DNA of 64,000 nucleotides from a virus (IMGVR_UViG_3300042564_006100:1-64000); one strand, 5' to 3'. Shown: positions 33,115 through 55,487, numbered from the stretch's first letter. The notes: generated from the sequence alone by a model not told the origin. Translations and numbers: made by a program.

Positions 33115-35295
33115 TCAGAAAGGTTCTTGATCATTTTCATTGGGGATTTCCTGGTTGCGGTCGCGGAGGATCGTCCACGACCGGGTGCGCTGGCGGGCGG
33201 TATCGCGCCCGTAGTTGATTGGGTAGCCTTGGCCCTTGAGTTGCCCGAGGCGGCGTCCGATCTGGTCGGGCGTGTATTTGGCAGCGACGTGCTTGGTGGA
33301 CTCGTCAGCCATCATCTCAGCGAGCAGGTCGGTTGCCGTGCCCGTCCATTCGCTGAGGCCCGGGTTGGAGAACCACGAGCGCAGGAACCGCTCCAGCAGC
33401 TCGATGAAGCCCGCCGTGTTGCCCGACTGGCGTGCGGTCTCGATGAGTGCCGCGTGGTGGTAGCAACGCACTCCAAAGCGCACGTCGCCTTGGCAGTGGA
33501 ACGGAGGGTCGTAATCGCGCAGCCAGCGGGCGAAGGCAGGCAGTTCGGCGCGGATGTGATCCGCTGCATCAGTGAAGTTGCGTTCCGCCGTGCGGATGCG
33601 GAACAAACAAATTTTGTCGAGGATGCTCATCTCGACGTCCGGCAGGATGCGGATCGATTCGGGGTCCGCATTGCAGGTGATCACCACCCGACCGGCCCAC
33701 GGCAGCATGATCTGGTCGCGGAATTTCGGATGGTATTGGAACGCGTAGTTCGCCGGGATCTTCTTGAGCATCGCAGAGTAGAGCTGCTGCTTCTTTGGGT
33801 CCGACGACGGCACCGTGTCGTCCACCGACCAGACGCCCACCTCGAAGAGTTCCTTGTTGAACCGTGATTCACCCAGCAGGTAATCGGAGGCATCCATGTG
33901 GCCGCCGAACAGGCCGCCGATGAGGACGTTGGAAACCAGCGTCTTCCCCTGGTTCACGTCACCGGCGAGGAAGATCGCCTGGCCGTTCTTCGGCTTGCCA
34001 GCAAGCGCGTGGCGGTAGGCGTAGGCCATCCACGACAGGAAGAAGTCGAGTTGCTCGTCCGGGTCGAACAATCCCGCGAGGAAGTCAGCAATCCACGGGA
34101 AACCGTCGCCCCACTCACCAACGCCGGCCACCGGCTCGATGATGCGAGATCGGCTGATGTTGAGATACCGCTTTCCACCGAAATGGATGAGGTGGTCGCG
34201 GCGGAACACGAAGGGCGCGGCCCCGTCGAGACATCGGTTCTGGTGGATTTGTTCAAGCGCGATGTCGAGTGGGGATGCCGTCGCGCCGCCCGGTCGTTCG
34301 TCGGAGATCGTGTGTGCGACCCGCAGGTGGAGCGAGATGTCTGCCTTCTTGAAAAGACGCCAGACACCACCAATCTGGAGCCAGTAATCGCGGCCGTCGA
34401 ACCACGTGCCATTGATCGCGGCACCGATGGTGGATGCCCGAAATTCGTCGGTGAATTTCCTGCCAAAGATTTCGCCCCAGCTGACGAATGGCTTCGGGCC
34501 GGTGAAACATTGCATCCCGCTCGGCCTGACAATCGCGGCACCCGGGCTGTCGGCGCTTTCGTCCCAGAAACGAGGCCCGCGGGCACCGTCTTCGAATGGC
34601 CCAGGCCAGCGGCCGGGGAATCGACGCTCCAGTTCGTCCGCCACACGCTCAAGCGGGACTGTCTCGCCGAGGGCACCCCAGTCGGCATTCTTCGATGCTT
34701 GGATCGCCCACGATTGCAGCAGGTCCACCGAAAAGAGCGTAGAGTGGAGAACCTTCCATCCGTCGCCGCAGTGGTAGTATTGGACCGGGCGTTCGAGCGC
34801 TTCCTCGTCAAGCCCGGGCAGCAGTTTCTTGAGCTTCAGTTCCTTTTTGAACCTAGACACCATTGCCTTCTGTGCCTTCCGATCGAACACCGGCAGCGGA
34901 GCCTCGAACAACCAGAGGGCGCGGGCGTTCCCCGAGAAGGTCGAGCTCACCATGTTCGGCGGATACTCAGGCGACGCCCGCTTAAGGAACGCATCCATCT
35001 CCCCCGGAGCCACCTTGGCGTCGTAGTCGGCGACCAGAGCGTGCATGAACTGCGGTGGATTCTGCTCACTCACGCGCAACGCCACATTCGCACCCTCGTA
35101 GCCGGAGAAGAACAGGCTGTGGGTCGATGGATCGGAGCACCACTTCCGGTATCCCTCCTTGTCGAGGCCGGGAGGAACGGTGCGGGCACCATTGAGCAGC
35201 GGCGACCAGGGTTCGCCAGTGGTGATCCGGTGACTCGATAGATTTTCGAGACAGAATACTTGCGGGAAATTTTGGGTGGGTGGAAGGGAGTTCAT
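33115..35295 (-). CDS. Primase-helicase (N-terminal primase-like, C-terminal P-loop DUF5906/VirE-like)
   Basis: ADYD, TFSGNAR; GDVNQGKT, VDD, ITCN. Confidence 0.8.
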   Translation of the reverse strand: MNSLPPTQNFPQVFCLENLSSHRITTGEPWSPLLNGARTVPPGLDKEGYRKWCSDPSTHSLFFSGYEGANVALRVSEQNPPQFMHALVADYDAKVAPGEMDAFLKRASPEYPPNMVSSTFSGNARALWLFEAPLPVFDRKAQKAMVSRFKKELKLKKLLPGLDEEALERPVQYYHCGDGWKVLHSTLFSVDLLQSWAIQASKNADWGALGETVPLERVADELERRFPGRWPGPFEDGARGPRFWDESADSPGAAIVRPSGMQCFTGPKPFVSWGEIFGRKFTDEFRASTIGAAINGTWFDGRDYWLQIGGVWRLFKKADISLHLRVAHTISDERPGGATASPLDIALEQIHQNRCLDGAAPFVFRRDHLIHFGGKRYLNISRSRIIEPVAGVGEWGDGFPWIADFLAGLFDPDEQLDFFLSWMAYAYRHALAGKPKNGQAIFLAGDVNQGKTLVSNVLIGGLFGGHMDASDYLLGESRFNKELFEVGVWSVDDTVPSSDPKKQQLYSAMLKKIPANYAFQYHPKFRDQIMLPWAGRVVITCNADPESIRILPDVEMSILDKICLFRIRTAERNFTDAADHIRAELPAFARWLRDYDPPFHCQGDVRFGVRCYHHAALIETARQSGNTAGFIELLERFLRSWFSNPGLSEWTGTATDLLAEMMADESTKHVAAKYTPDQIGRRLGQLKGQGYPINYGRDTARQRTRSWTILRDRNQEIPNENDQEPF

Positions 35296-35600
35296 TTGCA
35301 GTAGCGGTTGGTGACAATGGCTTCGGCGGCGAGCGGGCAGCCGGTGAGCCAGTCGGGGGTGATAGACATGATTCGCTCGATCTCACGTGGATCGGTGCCG
35401 GGCGTGACCTCGCACACTGCCTCGTCGTGGACGTGGAAGACGACCTCGACTCCCACCCTGTGCAGCCGCAACAGGGATTCACCGAAGACATCGCGGGCCA
35501 CCGCCTGGACGCAATTAGAGACGATAAAGGGTTTTCCATCGCCGCCGCGAACGGTGAAGCGGCGGCGGGGACCGGCATTGAGAATATCGTAAACTTTCAT
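35292..35600 (-). CDS. Split-intein C-half (29 aa) fused to family A DNA polymerase C-terminus
   Basis: MKVYDI...FIVSN then CVQAVARD...HVHDE (PolA motif C). Confidence 0.88.
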   Translation of the reverse strand: MKVYDILNAGPRRRFTVRGGDGKPFIVSNCVQAVARDVFGESLLRLHRVGVEVVFHVHDEAVCEVTPGTDPREIERIMSITPDWLTGCPLAAEAIVTNRYCK

Positions 35601-36235
35601 GGTTGGATTCGGTTGGTGTAGTTGGGTTCGATCAACAGCTTGTCGGCGGGCCAGCCGCTCTTGATTCGATAGAGAATGGTCGTGACCCCGACGCCGAACC
35701 GCTCAGACGCTTCCGCCACAGTCATTCGCCCAACCGGTGTGGCGATTGCCACGTTGTTCCGCTTGTTCCGGCACTGCGTCTTGCGTGACGCCCAGCGGCA
35801 GTTCTCCTTTGAATAGCCGCCGTCGTTGTTGATTCGGTCGAGACTGAGGCCAGGCGCATAGCTGCCGCCCATGTCGCCCCAGAAGGGCTCGAAGTTCAGC
35901 CACTCAGGACAAACACAAACGCCCCTGCCGCCATAGTTCTTAAATGCCCGGTGTCGTGAGTTACGGCACCTTGCCAGCATTGAACTCCAGACGGCAAACG
36001 CCGGGTGCCGGGACATCGAATGGGTGGACCGTTTTTCGCTTATGGCGGAGGCAAAGAGCGGGCAGCGGTGTGAGCAGAAGCGGGCATTCCGTAGTTCCGT
36101 GCCGACCTTGACGGTCGCACTGCCGCAGACGCAGCGAACCTCCCAAAGCGAGTGGTGACCATCGGTGCCGCATGCAGCAAGCACCGTGAGATGACCGAAC
36201 GTTTGGCCGACGAGTGACAGTCTAGGCTTCGGCAT
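35597..36235 (-). CDS. Free-standing HNH-type homing endonuclease
   Basis: GQTFGHLTV, WSSMLARC, YGGRG, LDRINNDGGYSKENCRWA. Confidence 0.88.
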   Translation of the reverse strand: MPKPRLSLVGQTFGHLTVLAACGTDGHHSLWEVRCVCGSATVKVGTELRNARFCSHRCPLFASAISEKRSTHSMSRHPAFAVWSSMLARCRNSRHRAFKNYGGRGVCVCPEWLNFEPFWGDMGGSYAPGLSLDRINNDGGYSKENCRWASRKTQCRNKRNNVAIATPVGRMTVAEASERFGVGVTTILYRIKSGWPADKLLIEPNYTNRIQP

Positions 36236-38021
36236 AATATTCCGCTGCCTCCTGGTGAGTGGTTTCCGCCGAGGCCAGCCAACCGGCGCGTGTCAGCACC
36301 TTGTGGTCGGGAGTGACGCGCACACCTCCGAAATCAATGGTTTCGCGGTCGCCCTGCTCGACGACGCCGGAGTGAGTAACCCACTCGACGCCATCCCAAA
36401 CGAGATCGTCCTGTCCGACTTGCTCGATGGGCATCCATCCGGAATTGGTGAGAACTTCCGTGCCTTCGCCCAAACAGTTCTCACACAATTTTCCGCCGTA
36501 GAAGGGAATCCGGCGACTGCCGCGCTCGACGCGGGCGGTCCATCCACCGGATGACCTAACATCGCGGTAGGTCAGTTTTCGCCCGGACGGGAGCTCGACG
36601 ACAAAGTCACCACCTGAGGATCGTTTGAAGTCGTTCTGCAGTTGGTTCCACAGCGCAGTGATTTTGCGGTTCGACCCGCGGAACGACTCAACAGTGCGGG
36701 TCGCTTCCTGGGAGCTGATCGTGATGCCGGCCATGGTGCGGGCGACTTCGACGAAACGCTCGGGGCCGCACCCGTATCCCAGACCGAGGACGCGGGCTTT
36801 CGCCAGCGAGTAGAGCTCGGCGTTCTCCTTCTTCAGATTGCCGCCAGTCCACCCCATCGTGGCGCGGGCGTGCGCCTCGTAGAGCGGGACGCCATCGGCA
36901 AGTTGATCCAGTAGGACGGTGTCGCCACAAAGCCACGCGAGCACCCGTGGTTCGATCTGCGAGAGGTCACAGATGATGAACTCCTTGCCGGGGCGTGGCA
37001 CGATGCACCCGCGAAGGTCGGCACCGTAGGATTCCCCGCGTGGCAAATTCTGGCAGTTGAATCCGGAGTCGCCGCTCCACCGACCGGTGTGGGCACCAAA
37101 ATATTTGAGACCGAAGCCCATGCAGCCATCCGTCGGGCGAATCCGATCCTTCATCACCCGGAGCTTCTCACGCAGCGCGTTGGTTTTGCGGAATGTCCGC
37201 ATCGCAGCGACCCACGGAAACTTCTCGCCGTGGATATTCTCCCATGCAGCACACGCTGGGTCGTCTTCGGAAGTGGACGGCGGCGGTGGGATAGAGTTGG
37301 CCCGGCAATGTTCTCCTAGGGATTTAATCGAGAGCACGGCGGCATCGCCATCGGCCCACGGGATGTCGTTGCGGGCCTGCCACATCACAAGGTCGAGGGA
37401 GGCGACCGCCTGGTCGGCGAGTTCCGTGTCGATGCGGACGCCGCGCCAGCCTGACGTCATCGTCAGATGGGCAAGCTCGCGTTCGTTTTCCGGCCACTCA
37501 TGCGAGTGCTGCTGCCAAAGGTCGAAGCAGGTCCGGGCGTCCCGAATGACGTAATCCCGCATCTCGTCGGCGCGGCCGGCGTCCACCGCGTCCTGCCAAG
37601 TCCTGCCTTTCATCCAAGTGCGCAGGTCCTTGGTGACATCGACGCCGAGGAGCTCACGGGCCGCGCCAGCCAGATTCCGTGGCGCTCCGAGATACACCGA
37701 AAGGTTGGCCGTGCATCCACCACCGGCAAACTCGATATGGTCGGGAATCACGCCGTCGCGGGCGAGCTTTGCCAGCACGAGTCCGTCCCACGAAAGGTTG
37801 TGGGCAACGATGAACTTGCCGTGGAGCAGGCTCCAATCAAAGTCCTTCGGGTGGCCGGCCCATTCGATGCCCTCACCGACAACACCCATGAGGTAGATGT
37901 CGCACCTGGGGTCGTTCAAATAGTGCCACTGACCGAGCGACTTGATGTCGCAGCCCTTGCCGTAGAACGACTCAAAGTCCACGGCGACGACAGACGGCAT
38001 GGAAGTTGAATCAGTTTCCAT
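36222..38021 (-). CDS. Family A DNA polymerase N-part fused to split-intein N-half (84 aa)
   Basis: DFES exonuclease, HTGRWSG, QNLPR, DLSQIEPR, KARVLGLGYG; then CLGEGTEVLT...TPDHKV. Confidence 0.9.
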   Translation of the reverse strand: METDSTSMPSVVAVDFESFYGKGCDIKSLGQWHYLNDPRCDIYLMGVVGEGIEWAGHPKDFDWSLLHGKFIVAHNLSWDGLVLAKLARDGVIPDHIEFAGGGCTANLSVYLGAPRNLAGAARELLGVDVTKDLRTWMKGRTWQDAVDAGRADEMRDYVIRDARTCFDLWQQHSHEWPENERELAHLTMTSGWRGVRIDTELADQAVASLDLVMWQARNDIPWADGDAAVLSIKSLGEHCRANSIPPPPSTSEDDPACAAWENIHGEKFPWVAAMRTFRKTNALREKLRVMKDRIRPTDGCMGFGLKYFGAHTGRWSGDSGFNCQNLPRGESYGADLRGCIVPRPGKEFIICDLSQIEPRVLAWLCGDTVLLDQLADGVPLYEAHARATMGWTGGNLKKENAELYSLAKARVLGLGYGCGPERFVEVARTMAGITISSQEATRTVESFRGSNRKITALWNQLQNDFKRSSGGDFVVELPSGRKLTYRDVRSSGGWTARVERGSRRIPFYGGKLCENCLGEGTEVLTNSGWMPIEQVGQDDLVWDGVEWVTHSGVVEQGDRETIDFGGVRVTPDHKVLTRAGWLASAETTHQEAAEYYAEA

Positions 38022-38394
38022 GCTGATTGTCTGGATGAGAGCTACGAACGATCAGTTCTAATGTCCGATCCGCGTCTTCATTGAAGTCGAGGTCAGGCTG
38101 GCATTCGCTCCGCGCCTGCCATGCTCCAGCCAAAAGGCCACAATCGAGAAGGCTGAGGCCATTGACCACATGATCCGCAATCCGACGGCACCTGTCCTTC
38201 GCGCATATAGCCACAAGATCCATGGCGAGGCGCTTTGATCGCGGCAGTCCCTCGTTTGATGCAATTTCTTCTCGAAGAAGTTCCCACTCAGCATTGAGCT
38301 CTGCAGCTCGGATTAGAGCGTCGAGCAACGATCGCTGAATTTCGTCAGCATTTAGTGGAAGCGGTTCTGGGTGGTCTGTGTTAGCCATACCCAT
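38011..38394 (-). CDS. Hypothetical protein
   Basis: ORF between hairpin 38403-38436 and polymerase. Confidence 0.45.
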   Translation of the reverse strand: MGMANTDHPEPLPLNADEIQRSLLDALIRAAELNAEWELLREEIASNEGLPRSKRLAMDLVAICAKDRCRRIADHVVNGLSLLDCGLLAGAWQARSECQPDLDFNEDADRTLELIVRSSHPDNQHGN

Positions 38395-53888: not shown

Positions 53889-54135
53889 CCGGGACAGAAT
53901 CCCCGGATTCCATGAGAATTCCATGAAAACCGCCGTGTCGCTAGGCATCGCCCTTCGCCACCGGCAAACAACCAACACGCACAAGAGCCAGTAAATATGA
54001 GCAAAAGCAGACAAGCAGGTGGGGTCCTAACCCCTCCGCCATCTGGTTGCTCAATCGACGCAACTGATACGCCATCAACAACTTGCGAGCCTTCAGAGCA
54101 AACCGGGACAGATTTTCCTGACAGTTTTTCTGACA
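53889..54135. other. Putative att junction between prophage A and B
   Basis: Core TCCGCCATC 54035-54043; ATTCCATGA x2 53906-53926; TTTyCTGACA x2 54113-54135. Confidence 0.55.
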
Positions 54136-54158
54136 AGTTGACTCGAAAGCCGGGGTCT

Positions 54159-55487
54159 ATGACCCGGAAACGCAAACGCCGTAGCAGTGTCGTGGAAATC
54201 GGCAACGGTCCCGCGAGAATCAAAATCTACACGATGAACCGTCGGGATGGTTATCCCGAGTTCACGCTTTCATGGAAGGAGGCGGCCAGGCGCAAGACGC
54301 GCAGCTTCTCCTCGATGGACGAAGCACGGATGATCGCCCAGCAGATCAGCGTCCGTCTGACCAATGGCTGGACGGCCGCCGATGAAGCGACCCGCCGCGA
54401 CATCGACCTGCTCCGCCACTGCGAGCAAGTAGCTCGTGAGCATGGAGTCGGTCTTTCCGCCGCGATGGACGAATGGGCCAGCGCACGGAAAGCCGCAGGT
54501 GAAATCCCACTGTCCGATGCGGTGCGGTTCTATCAAGCAAACCGGGCAGATCTATTTGCCGTCCGCACCAACGTCCAGGTAGCCGCCGAGTTCGTCGTGT
54601 CGCTGAAACGCAAGGGCGTGAGTGCCATCTATGTTCGGAACGCGACTAGCAGCCTCAAGCGGGTCACCGATGCCATGCCGGGAAATATCGCAGATGTCAG
54701 CGTGGCCGACATCAACCGGTTCCTCGACAGCCTCAAGACGCTTGGGCCGGTCAGCAAGAACGGCATTCGGCGCAACCTCGTTACGATGTTTGGATTCGCC
54801 AAGAAACAGGGATACCTCCATCCCGACCGGAAAACTGCTGCGGAACAGAGCGACTCGTTCAAGGAGCCTGAGAAGGAGATCGAGATTTTTACGCCGGACG
54901 AGATGCGTGACATCCTGCTCGCCGCCCACGCCCGCATCCTGCCGCTCATCGCCATCGGCGGATTTTGCGGAATTCGGTCTGCCGAGGTCGAACGCCTCAC
55001 CTGGCAGGACATCAAATGGGATCGCGGCCACATCGAGATCGCCGGCCACAAGGCGAAGACGGCGGCGCGGCGACTCGTCCCCCTCCCCGAGAATCTCAAG
55101 GCGTGGCTTGCGCCATGGCGTGATGAAACCGGCCCTATCCTCACGATCAGCGATGTATCGGGTGCCTTGGGTGATACCGCAGTGAAGGCGAAAATCCCCG
55201 GCGGATGGCGTCAGAATGCCCTCAGACACTCGTTCATCAGCTATCGAGTATCACTGACAGGCGACGTAGCTCGAACCTCTCTGGAGGCAGGCAACTCCCC
55301 GAAAATGATCTTCCGCCACTATCGGGAAATCGTGGATGAGGAAGCCGCCCGGACATGGTTCGGGATGACGCCTCCCGATGGCTGGATGCCGACGGGACTC
55401 AAGCACAGCCTGCGGGAACGGATGTGGCGCTTGCTGGCACAAGATGGGACACCGCGTGTTGACAGCGATAACAGTGAGCAATCATGA
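54159..55487 (+). CDS. Tyrosine recombinase / phage integrase 2
   Basis: Close paralog of integrase 1 with the same catalytic motifs. Confidence 0.93.
   Translation: MTRKRKRRSSVVEIGNGPARIKIYTMNRRDGYPEFTLSWKEAARRKTRSFSSMDEARMIAQQISVRLTNGWTAADEATRRDIDLLRHCEQVAREHGVGLSAAMDEWASARKAAGEIPLSDAVRFYQANRADLFAVRTNVQVAAEFVVSLKRKGVSAIYVRNATSSLKRVTDAMPGNIADVSVADINRFLDSLKTLGPVSKNGIRRNLVTMFGFAKKQGYLHPDRKTAAEQSDSFKEPEKEIEIFTPDEMRDILLAAHARILPLIAIGGFCGIRSAEVERLTWQDIKWDRGHIEIAGHKAKTAARRLVPLPENLKAWLAPWRDETGPILTISDVSGALGDTAVKAKIPGGWRQNALRHSFISYRVSLTGDVARTSLEAGNSPKMIFRHYREIVDEEAARTWFGMTPPDGWMPTGLKHSLRERMWRLLAQDGTPRVDSDNSEQS

Follow-up and report, generated by a model that had tools for sequence, protein, structure and literature searches.

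A family A DNA polymerase gene divided by a candidate split intein and a free-standing HNH-like endonuclease gene

Organisation of the fractured polymerase locus

The DNA studied here, IMGVR_UViG_3300042564_006100:1-64000, is a stretch of 64,000 nucleotides (nt) from a virus (hereafter the window, in which positions are counted from the first letter). On its minus strand it carries a family A DNA polymerase gene (polA) broken into two pieces, each fused to one half of an intein, and a gene for an HNH-like protein lies between them. Judging from the sequence, we think it likely that the two polypeptides are trans-spliced into a single polymerase of 588 amino acids (aa), that the HNH protein serves as a homing nuclease and that the C-terminal piece is translated in coupling with the HNH gene. 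Our literature searches found neither an earlier description of a family A polymerase with a split intein nor any account of this HNH-nested intein family as such; within the searched literature, the intein of the window is the first natural split intein known from such a polymerase.

The three open reading frames (ORFs) that a first-pass annotation of this DNA had drawn were all recovered, and the HNH gene indeed lies in another frame and overlaps both of its neighbours. The features are as follows (a slash in a protein or DNA motif, here and below, marks an intein insertion point).

36222-38021, minus strand: PolA-N + IntN ORF, 599 aa
36477-38021, minus strand: N-extein, family A DNA polymerase, 515 aa; exonuclease-like N-terminus, motifs A and B, end ...FYGGKLCEN
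36225-36476, minus strand: N-intein (IntN), 84 aa; block A CLGEGTEVLT, block B TPDH, stop codon at 36222-36224
36248-36253, minus strand: AGGAGG Shine-Dalgarno-like hexamer within the IntN coding sequence, 12 nt upstream of the HNH ATG and conserved in the related contig L007
35597-36235, minus strand: HNH-like ORF, 212 aa, +1 frame; putative free-standing endonuclease gene encoding an N-terminal Cys cluster, a D-R...N...N core and a C-terminal helix-turn-helix
35292-35600, minus strand: IntC + PolA-C ORF, 102 aa
35514-35600, minus strand: C-intein (IntC), 29 aa; block F VYDI, block G FIVSN, ATG in the overlap with the HNH stop
35295-35513, minus strand: C-extein, 73 aa; begins CVQAVARD with Cys+1, contains motif C (HVHDE), stop codon at 35292-35294 overlapping the primase start

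The N and C pieces lie in one reading frame, their starts being 2421 nt apart, and the HNH ORF lies in the +1 frame. When the polymerase frame is read straight through, five stops are met between the intein halves. The N piece and the HNH ORF overlap by 14 nt, and the HNH stop and the start of the C piece share an ATGA at 35597-35600; an ATGA stop-start overlap also joins PolA-C to the primase gene (35292-35295). The arrangement is that of a fractured gene, in which IntN stops after block N4, IntC has an ATG of its own and an endonuclease gene on the same strand separates the two.

The exteins and the point of insertion

The N piece matches the Pfam family DNA_pol_A (8.5e-18) and the PHROG DNA polymerase profile phrog_17 (2e-59). 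On this profile the match of the N piece reaches position 1142, and that of the C piece runs over positions 1148-1231; the C piece in addition matches phrog_7766 (9e-21). At the break, 84 residues on the N side and 29 on the C side have no match to the polymerase profiles, and once these are dropped the exteins join to give 515 + 73 = 588 aa. The first-pass annotation had predicted an enzyme of exactly this length, with the junction GGKLCEN-CVQAVARD, and had proposed a search for uninterrupted alleles. Such alleles were found at syntenic positions in L002, L005 and L006; they comprise 588 codons and are exactly collinear with the joined exteins, in agreement with the prediction and with a precise insertion. 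Their N-exteins are 85-87% (the IMG/VR contigs L005 and L006) and about 62% (L002) identical to that of the window. The intein-free junction reads ...FYGGKLCEN/LVQAVARD..., and the alleles that carry it lack all 113 intein codons as well as the HNH gene. Residue +1 is Leu in the empty alleles and Cys in every allele that bears the intein. With motifs A and B confined to the N piece and motif C to the C piece, neither fragment can be a polymerase alone.

Identity of the intein halves

Both halves are homologous to the intein in the polymerase (dpol, P45) of the Hamiltonella phage APSE-1, with 53% identity for IntN (E 9e-23) and 54% for IntC. A phmmer search of PDB with the 84-aa IntN matched inteins only (among them Mtu RecA, the split Pol intein of N. 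equitans and DnaB), at borderline E-values of about 0.01. The net charge is -12 for IntN and +4 for IntC, so that the earlier description of an acidic N-intein and a basic C-intein holds, and the splicing residues are in place. Cys1, the first residue of CLGEGTEVLT after ...KLCEN, is invariant in the family alignment, as are T55 and H58 of block B (T-x-x-H). The VYD of block F is invariant or nearly so across the family alignments, and the terminal N29 and the nucleophile C30 (Cys+1) are invariant in 14 split C pieces (FIVSN/C).

The fold was tested by proxy on the closest contiguous relative, a mini-intein of 146 aa from L058 that shares 67% (IntN) and 90% (IntC) identity with the halves. Its AlphaFold2 (AF2) model reached a pLDDT of 82.6, with a disordered linker. 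All 11 Foldseek matches of this model in PDB at E<=0.001 were inteins, including DnaX, DnaB, Npu DnaE, MchDnaB-1 and AceL NrdHF, and the weaker rows were mostly intein or Hint-superfamily structures, including the split inteins Npu DnaE, gp41-1 and NrdJ-1.

Intein halves that have lost splicing might instead act as a non-covalent clasp that holds the polymerase fragments together. Split enzymes that are not spliced have been documented (PMC2677866), and the case of Aeromonas phage Aeh1 (nrdA-a / mobE / nrdA-b), cited there, resembles the window in that a free-standing endonuclease gene of the HNH type has broken an essential phage gene into two ORFs that are transcribed together; it differs in that no intein is involved and the NrdA halves assemble non-covalently. 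The replacement of the penultimate His by Ser would also suit a clasp. However, the contiguous members of the family, which are obliged to splice in cis, often have Ser at this position too; more generally, relatives carry H, S or F there. Furthermore, all class 1 residues have been kept (Cys1, T-x-x-H, the block F Asp, the terminal Asn and Cys+1), and the Leu-to-Cys change at +1 in every intein-bearing allele makes sense only for splicing chemistry. A clasp thus appears improbable to us.

Maintenance of the split state by selection

The same fractured layout is found in the IMG/VR contig L007, although its polymerase shares no more than 58% identity with that of the window in the N-extein and 47% in the C-extein. 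In both, IntN ends at the same codon, AGGAGG stands 12 nt ahead of the HNH ATG, and the HNH stop and the IntC start overlap in an ATGA. Comparison of the window with L007 by the Nei-Gojobori method (dS about 1-1.5 for the N-extein, the intein halves and HNH) gave dN/dS values of 0.25 for the N-extein, 0.25 for IntN, 0.16 for HNH, 0 for IntC and 0.52 for the C-extein. In IntC, 14 differences are synonymous and none is non-synonymous, the protein being 100% identical. Protein searches revealed further split N pieces ending at the same position (P0004, P0005 and P0006) and C pieces of about 102 aa, in at least 13 distinct protein clusters, that start M-x-VYDIL...VSN/C. Because of this purifying selection and recurrence, both intein halves and the nuclease gene are to be regarded as functional in the split state and not as debris.

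These results bear directly on the notion that a defective prophage's polymerase is decaying, its gene having been broken by nonsense mutations in the intein. The element is integrated, with integrase genes at 1301-2983 and 53997-55487; its contig holds two related prophage regions in tandem; and most members of the intein family are contiguous, all of which would fit decay. Against this, purifying selection is seen in each of the five segments when two split lineages are compared, with dS saturated, the stop position, the Shine-Dalgarno hexamer and the ATGA overlap are conserved, many independent split N and C pieces exist, and the DNA of the window is present in 24 public runs from lake or aquatic metagenomes. 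We consider decay very unlikely.

Reality of the break

Two junctions were checked in independent contigs, namely that between the IntN stop and the HNH start and that between the HNH stop and the IntC start. Contigs from four independent public runs, belonging to four different studies and none of them the probable origin of the window, span both junctions with no indels. Since these contigs bridge both junctions without an indel, an assembly or sequencing artefact is excluded; the stop codons are genuine, and the continuous frame that the first-pass annotation had named as a refuting outcome is not seen there. No RNA data sets are listed among the public runs that contain window DNA, and a blastn search of the phage collection gave no match.

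That the stops are assembly errors, or that ribosomal frameshifting fuses IntN, HNH and IntC into one canonical HNH-containing intein, is suggested by the overlap of the HNH ORF with both halves and by the existence of in-frame HNH inteins (bioRxiv 10.1101/2025.01.02.630785). Beyond the four runs, the same frames occur in L007, HNH has a conserved AGGAGG and ATG, and IntC has its own ATG. A fusion would require two efficient shifts, and the intein frame is open in contiguous relatives, hence no shift is needed. We find this explanation scarcely credible. HNH genes often lie within phage group I introns, yet removal of such an intron at the RNA level is the least credible explanation of all and was rejected, as no Rfam family was found at E<=1 in 35000-38300, the protein would retain the intein blocks encoded on either side of the HNH gene, and what is missing from the intein-free alleles is the HNH gene together with all 113 codons.

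The HNH-like protein

The 212-aa protein matches HNH-annotated PHROG families, most strongly phrog_374 ('HNH endonuclease', 5e-55) and another at 3e-49, and it is 42% identical to the nested HNH ORF of APSE-1. With its position on the same strand between the halves and its own AGGAGG and ATG, this agrees with the earlier call of a free-standing HNH gene. The alignment of the nuclease family shows an N-terminal four-Cys cluster (CxC...CxC), a core of the form D-R ... N-C-x-W ... N in which D133-R134, N145 and N157 are family-invariant, and a C-terminal helix-turn-helix. The AF2 model (pLDDT 83.5) had as its best structural match among 48,000 chains (VIA) the unusual HNH restriction enzyme PacI, with Z 6.7 and an rmsd of 2.1 A over 75 residues (model residues 72-160). 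No Foldseek match of the nuclease model was significant, the top row being the HNH homing enzyme I-HmuI (E 0.41). The protein is best called HNH-like, and from its sequence it presumably acts as a nuclease on the target considered below.

Proposed mechanism

According to the explanation that we favour, PolA-N(515)-IntN(84) and IntC(29)-PolA-C(73) would be the two polypeptides of one polymerase. The acidic IntN and the basic IntC would associate into a Hint fold, and class 1 trans-splicing would proceed through an acyl shift at Cys1, attack by Cys+1 and cyclisation of the terminal Asn. The predicted product is the 588-aa polymerase, ...KLCEN-CVQAVARD..., in which motifs A and B are united with motif C. 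An HNH-family homing endonuclease would be made from its own AGGAGG/ATG start. Its presumed targets are the intein-free alleles (...GAAAAC/CTCGTCCAG...) of co-infecting relatives, into which, once they are cut, the cassette of intein and HNH gene would be copied, bringing the Leu-to-Cys change at +1 with it. Translation of the C piece is probably coupled to that of HNH, because the start of this piece lies in the ATGA overlap and a ribosome-binding site of its own is absent; no Shine-Dalgarno sequence is visible at the PolA-C (IntC) start or at the primase start.

Several points weigh against this explanation. The penultimate residue of the intein is Ser (VSN) where His is usual. In the search with Hint-domain profiles, which the first-pass annotation had proposed, the Pfam Hint models stayed below threshold for the halves (Hint_2 at only E 0.035) and no such family at all was returned for the 29-aa IntC. 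Searches of the 212-aa protein against Pfam and NCBIfam, and against PDB with phmmer, gave no HNH match; its fold match to PacI is only moderate; and the canonical first His is absent (D133-R134 standing in the alignment) with no invariant His in the core. The IntC start has no visible ribosome-binding site, and the prophage that carries the element could be defective.

A further-reaching proposal is that the two halves (84+29 aa) form a natural intein that trans-splices efficiently with Ser in place of His before the terminal Asn and is more compact than the split inteins in current use, and that the selfish HNH gene has become indispensable. This is possible but on balance doubtful. For comparison, gp41-1 has about 125 aa. 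If the proposal were true, the essential C fragment would be made only by ribosomes fresh from translating HNH; and if HNH is indispensable, the nuclease gene would therefore be kept under strong selection (compare its dN/dS of 0.16) and would not decay after fixation.

The intein family and the origin of the split

To place the window among its relatives, metagenome contigs were scanned with the C-piece alignment and 80 loci were classified; IMG/VR loci were classified likewise. A contiguous intein with an out-of-frame HNH gene inside was found at 17 loci with a strong HNH homologue and at 27 loci with a weaker one. These nested-HNH loci have no stops in either coding frame and 1-17 stops in the third. 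More than 20 IMG/VR loci are likewise contiguous with a nested HNH, and the pattern is followed by APSE-1 (L001) and by an intein in an SNF2 helicase (L047). Examples are L059, L062, L066, L067, L070-L072, L075, L080, L081, L086, L119, L001 and L047, as well as L221-L245. The nested gene overlaps an intein middle of about 200 codons in the +1 frame, or in the +2 frame in the weaker-matching clade, which amounts to a large dual-coding set. A further 23 loci have contiguous mini-inteins of 110-187 aa; in L117:2808-3137 and L088:1944-2282 the natural mini-inteins have only 110 and 113 residues. Split forms are rare: they comprise the window, L007, probably the partial L057 and, independently, L219 and L220 at the motif B site. 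Thus an out-of-frame HNH gene is the norm of the family and the split a rare derived form, which the first-pass annotation had not seen. That annotation had put forward the 113-aa pair (Ser-Asn/Cys+1) as a possible new split intein; the intein belongs to a large existing family.

Since members of the family normally splice in cis and have an HNH gene overlapping the intein, the window carries a derived split form. The split probably arose from a contiguous intein with a nested HNH by a nonsense mutation directly behind the HNH start together with an ATG heading block F. The nonsense mutation after the HNH start is common to the window, L007, P0004 and P0005, and the shared stop position and the identity values suggest a single origin for the split of the window and L007.

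In L219 (3019-5792), and also in L220, a second fractured family A polymerase carries an intein of the same family (...YAKAR/C ... AHN/CLGLGFG). Here the two intein halves do not share a frame, and both are overlapped by an HNH-like ORF of 281 aa.

The linker of the L058 mini-intein (L058:3150-3587, corresponding to protein P0008) reads ...GVSRSTILYPEPEY... in the intein frame and resembles the HNH C-terminal GVGVTTILY...EPNY. This suggests that the L058 mini-intein arose when part of the HNH gene was lost by internal deletion and the halves became joined again.

Homologous inteins occupy two points only three codons apart, GGKx/CEN and xEN/C[VT]Q (L001, L063, L075/L076, L224-L227 and P0050 compared with the window), and the family has further sites around motif B as well as in SNF2 helicases (L047/L048 and P0015-P0021). 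From the two close points and the further sites it follows that the cassette shifts its target sites.

A second intein site and the genomic surroundings

The polymerase has a second intein site, GFN/CQNLP, at 37052-37057 on the minus strand. In the near-identical relatives P0002 and P0008 it is filled by a LAGLIDADG-type intein, and in run X24 a contig departs from the window at 37054 and continues with sequence encoding the start of that intein. The site in the window is empty, with Cys already at +1. As the relatives are filled and the window is empty here, the lake population is polymorphic for the second intein.

The polymerase genes belong to a tightly coupled minus-strand operon in the order helicase, PD-(D/E)XK exonuclease, two small ORFs, PolA-N, HNH, PolA-C and primase. 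A promoter and terminator scan of 35.3-38.0 kb gave no internal signal on the coding strand and no terminator-like site in PolA-N/HNH/PolA-C. The whole contig, of 103.8 kb, comprises two related tandem prophage-like regions, the two integrases and a type I restriction-modification system (about 46.5-53 kb). Window positions 8540-32800 and contig positions 66600-91750 share 72-92% nucleotide identity over about 24 kb, but the replication modules differ, and the fractured polymerase is found in the first prophage-like region only. The closest relatives of the terminase (88-94% identical) lie on long contigs of Verrucomicrobiota genomes, which points to the element being a prophage of a freshwater Verrucomicrobia bacterium.

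Relation to known systems

In kind, the arrangement is already known from fractured genes and from an HNH-fractured PolB. Dassa et al. (2009) defined fractured genes as split-intein gene halves with an intervening free-standing endonuclease (PMC2677866). Their genes (gp41-1, gp41-8, NrdJ-1, IMPDH-1 and DnaE) resemble the window in having adjacent halves with an endonuclease gene on the same strand between them, a break at the point where an endonuclease domain is inserted, and complementary charges on the halves (PMC2677866). In contrast, their endonucleases are GIY-YIG or Vsr-like and not HNH, the possibility that HNH could act likewise having only been predicted (PMC2677866). Their hosts are helicase, ribonucleotide reductase (RNR), IMPDH and Pol III alpha, whereas the window's host protein is a family A polymerase, and in the window the HNH ORF overlaps both halves. 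The PolB of the Pseudomonas jumbo phage MIJ3, with a putative split intein and the HNH gene orf154, is HNH-fractured like the window; it is, however, a family B polymerase with an unrelated intein (Ser1, HN/S), and it was reported without population or selection analysis.

APSE-1, whose P45 intein contains the nested HNH ORF P46, has the host protein family and the replication module in common with the window. The inteins are homologous, as are the HNH proteins, whose genes both occupy the +1 frame. Unlike in the window, the intein frame of APSE-1 is open across HNH, giving a contiguous precursor of 993 aa that splices in cis, and the penultimate residue is His instead of Ser. The insertion point is not the same, that of APSE-1 lying three codons upstream (GGKS/CENICQ versus GGKLCEN/CVQ). 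The Cys of ...KLCEN was considered as a relic of an APSE-type insertion and this was rejected, as the intein-free L005 and L006 also have CEN and split relatives have VEN or AEN. Among APSE phages, the polymerase intein is variably present or absent (PMC7313666). A 2025 preprint describes out-of-frame endonuclease genes in contiguous actinophage inteins and explains them by invasion of the intein by a free-standing endonuclease gene; those inteins differ from the window's in being contiguous and in having an endonuclease VII-like nuclease.

Significance

The added value of the locus is modest: a very compact candidate split intein, and a clean natural series that links inteins with nested endonuclease genes to fractured genes. 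The pair of 113 residues, with Cys1, Cys+1 and strongly complementary charges, and its contiguous relatives down to 110 aa are candidates for compact orthogonal protein-ligation tools. The 2025 preprint predicts split inteins as an outcome of endonuclease gene invasion, and the window illustrates that prediction. The full natural series is present in this family, from empty alleles through contiguous mini-inteins and inteins with nested out-of-frame HNH genes to the split form, and it lends direct sequence support to the view that inteins are invaded by free-standing endonuclease genes, which can make split elements out of those that splice in cis.

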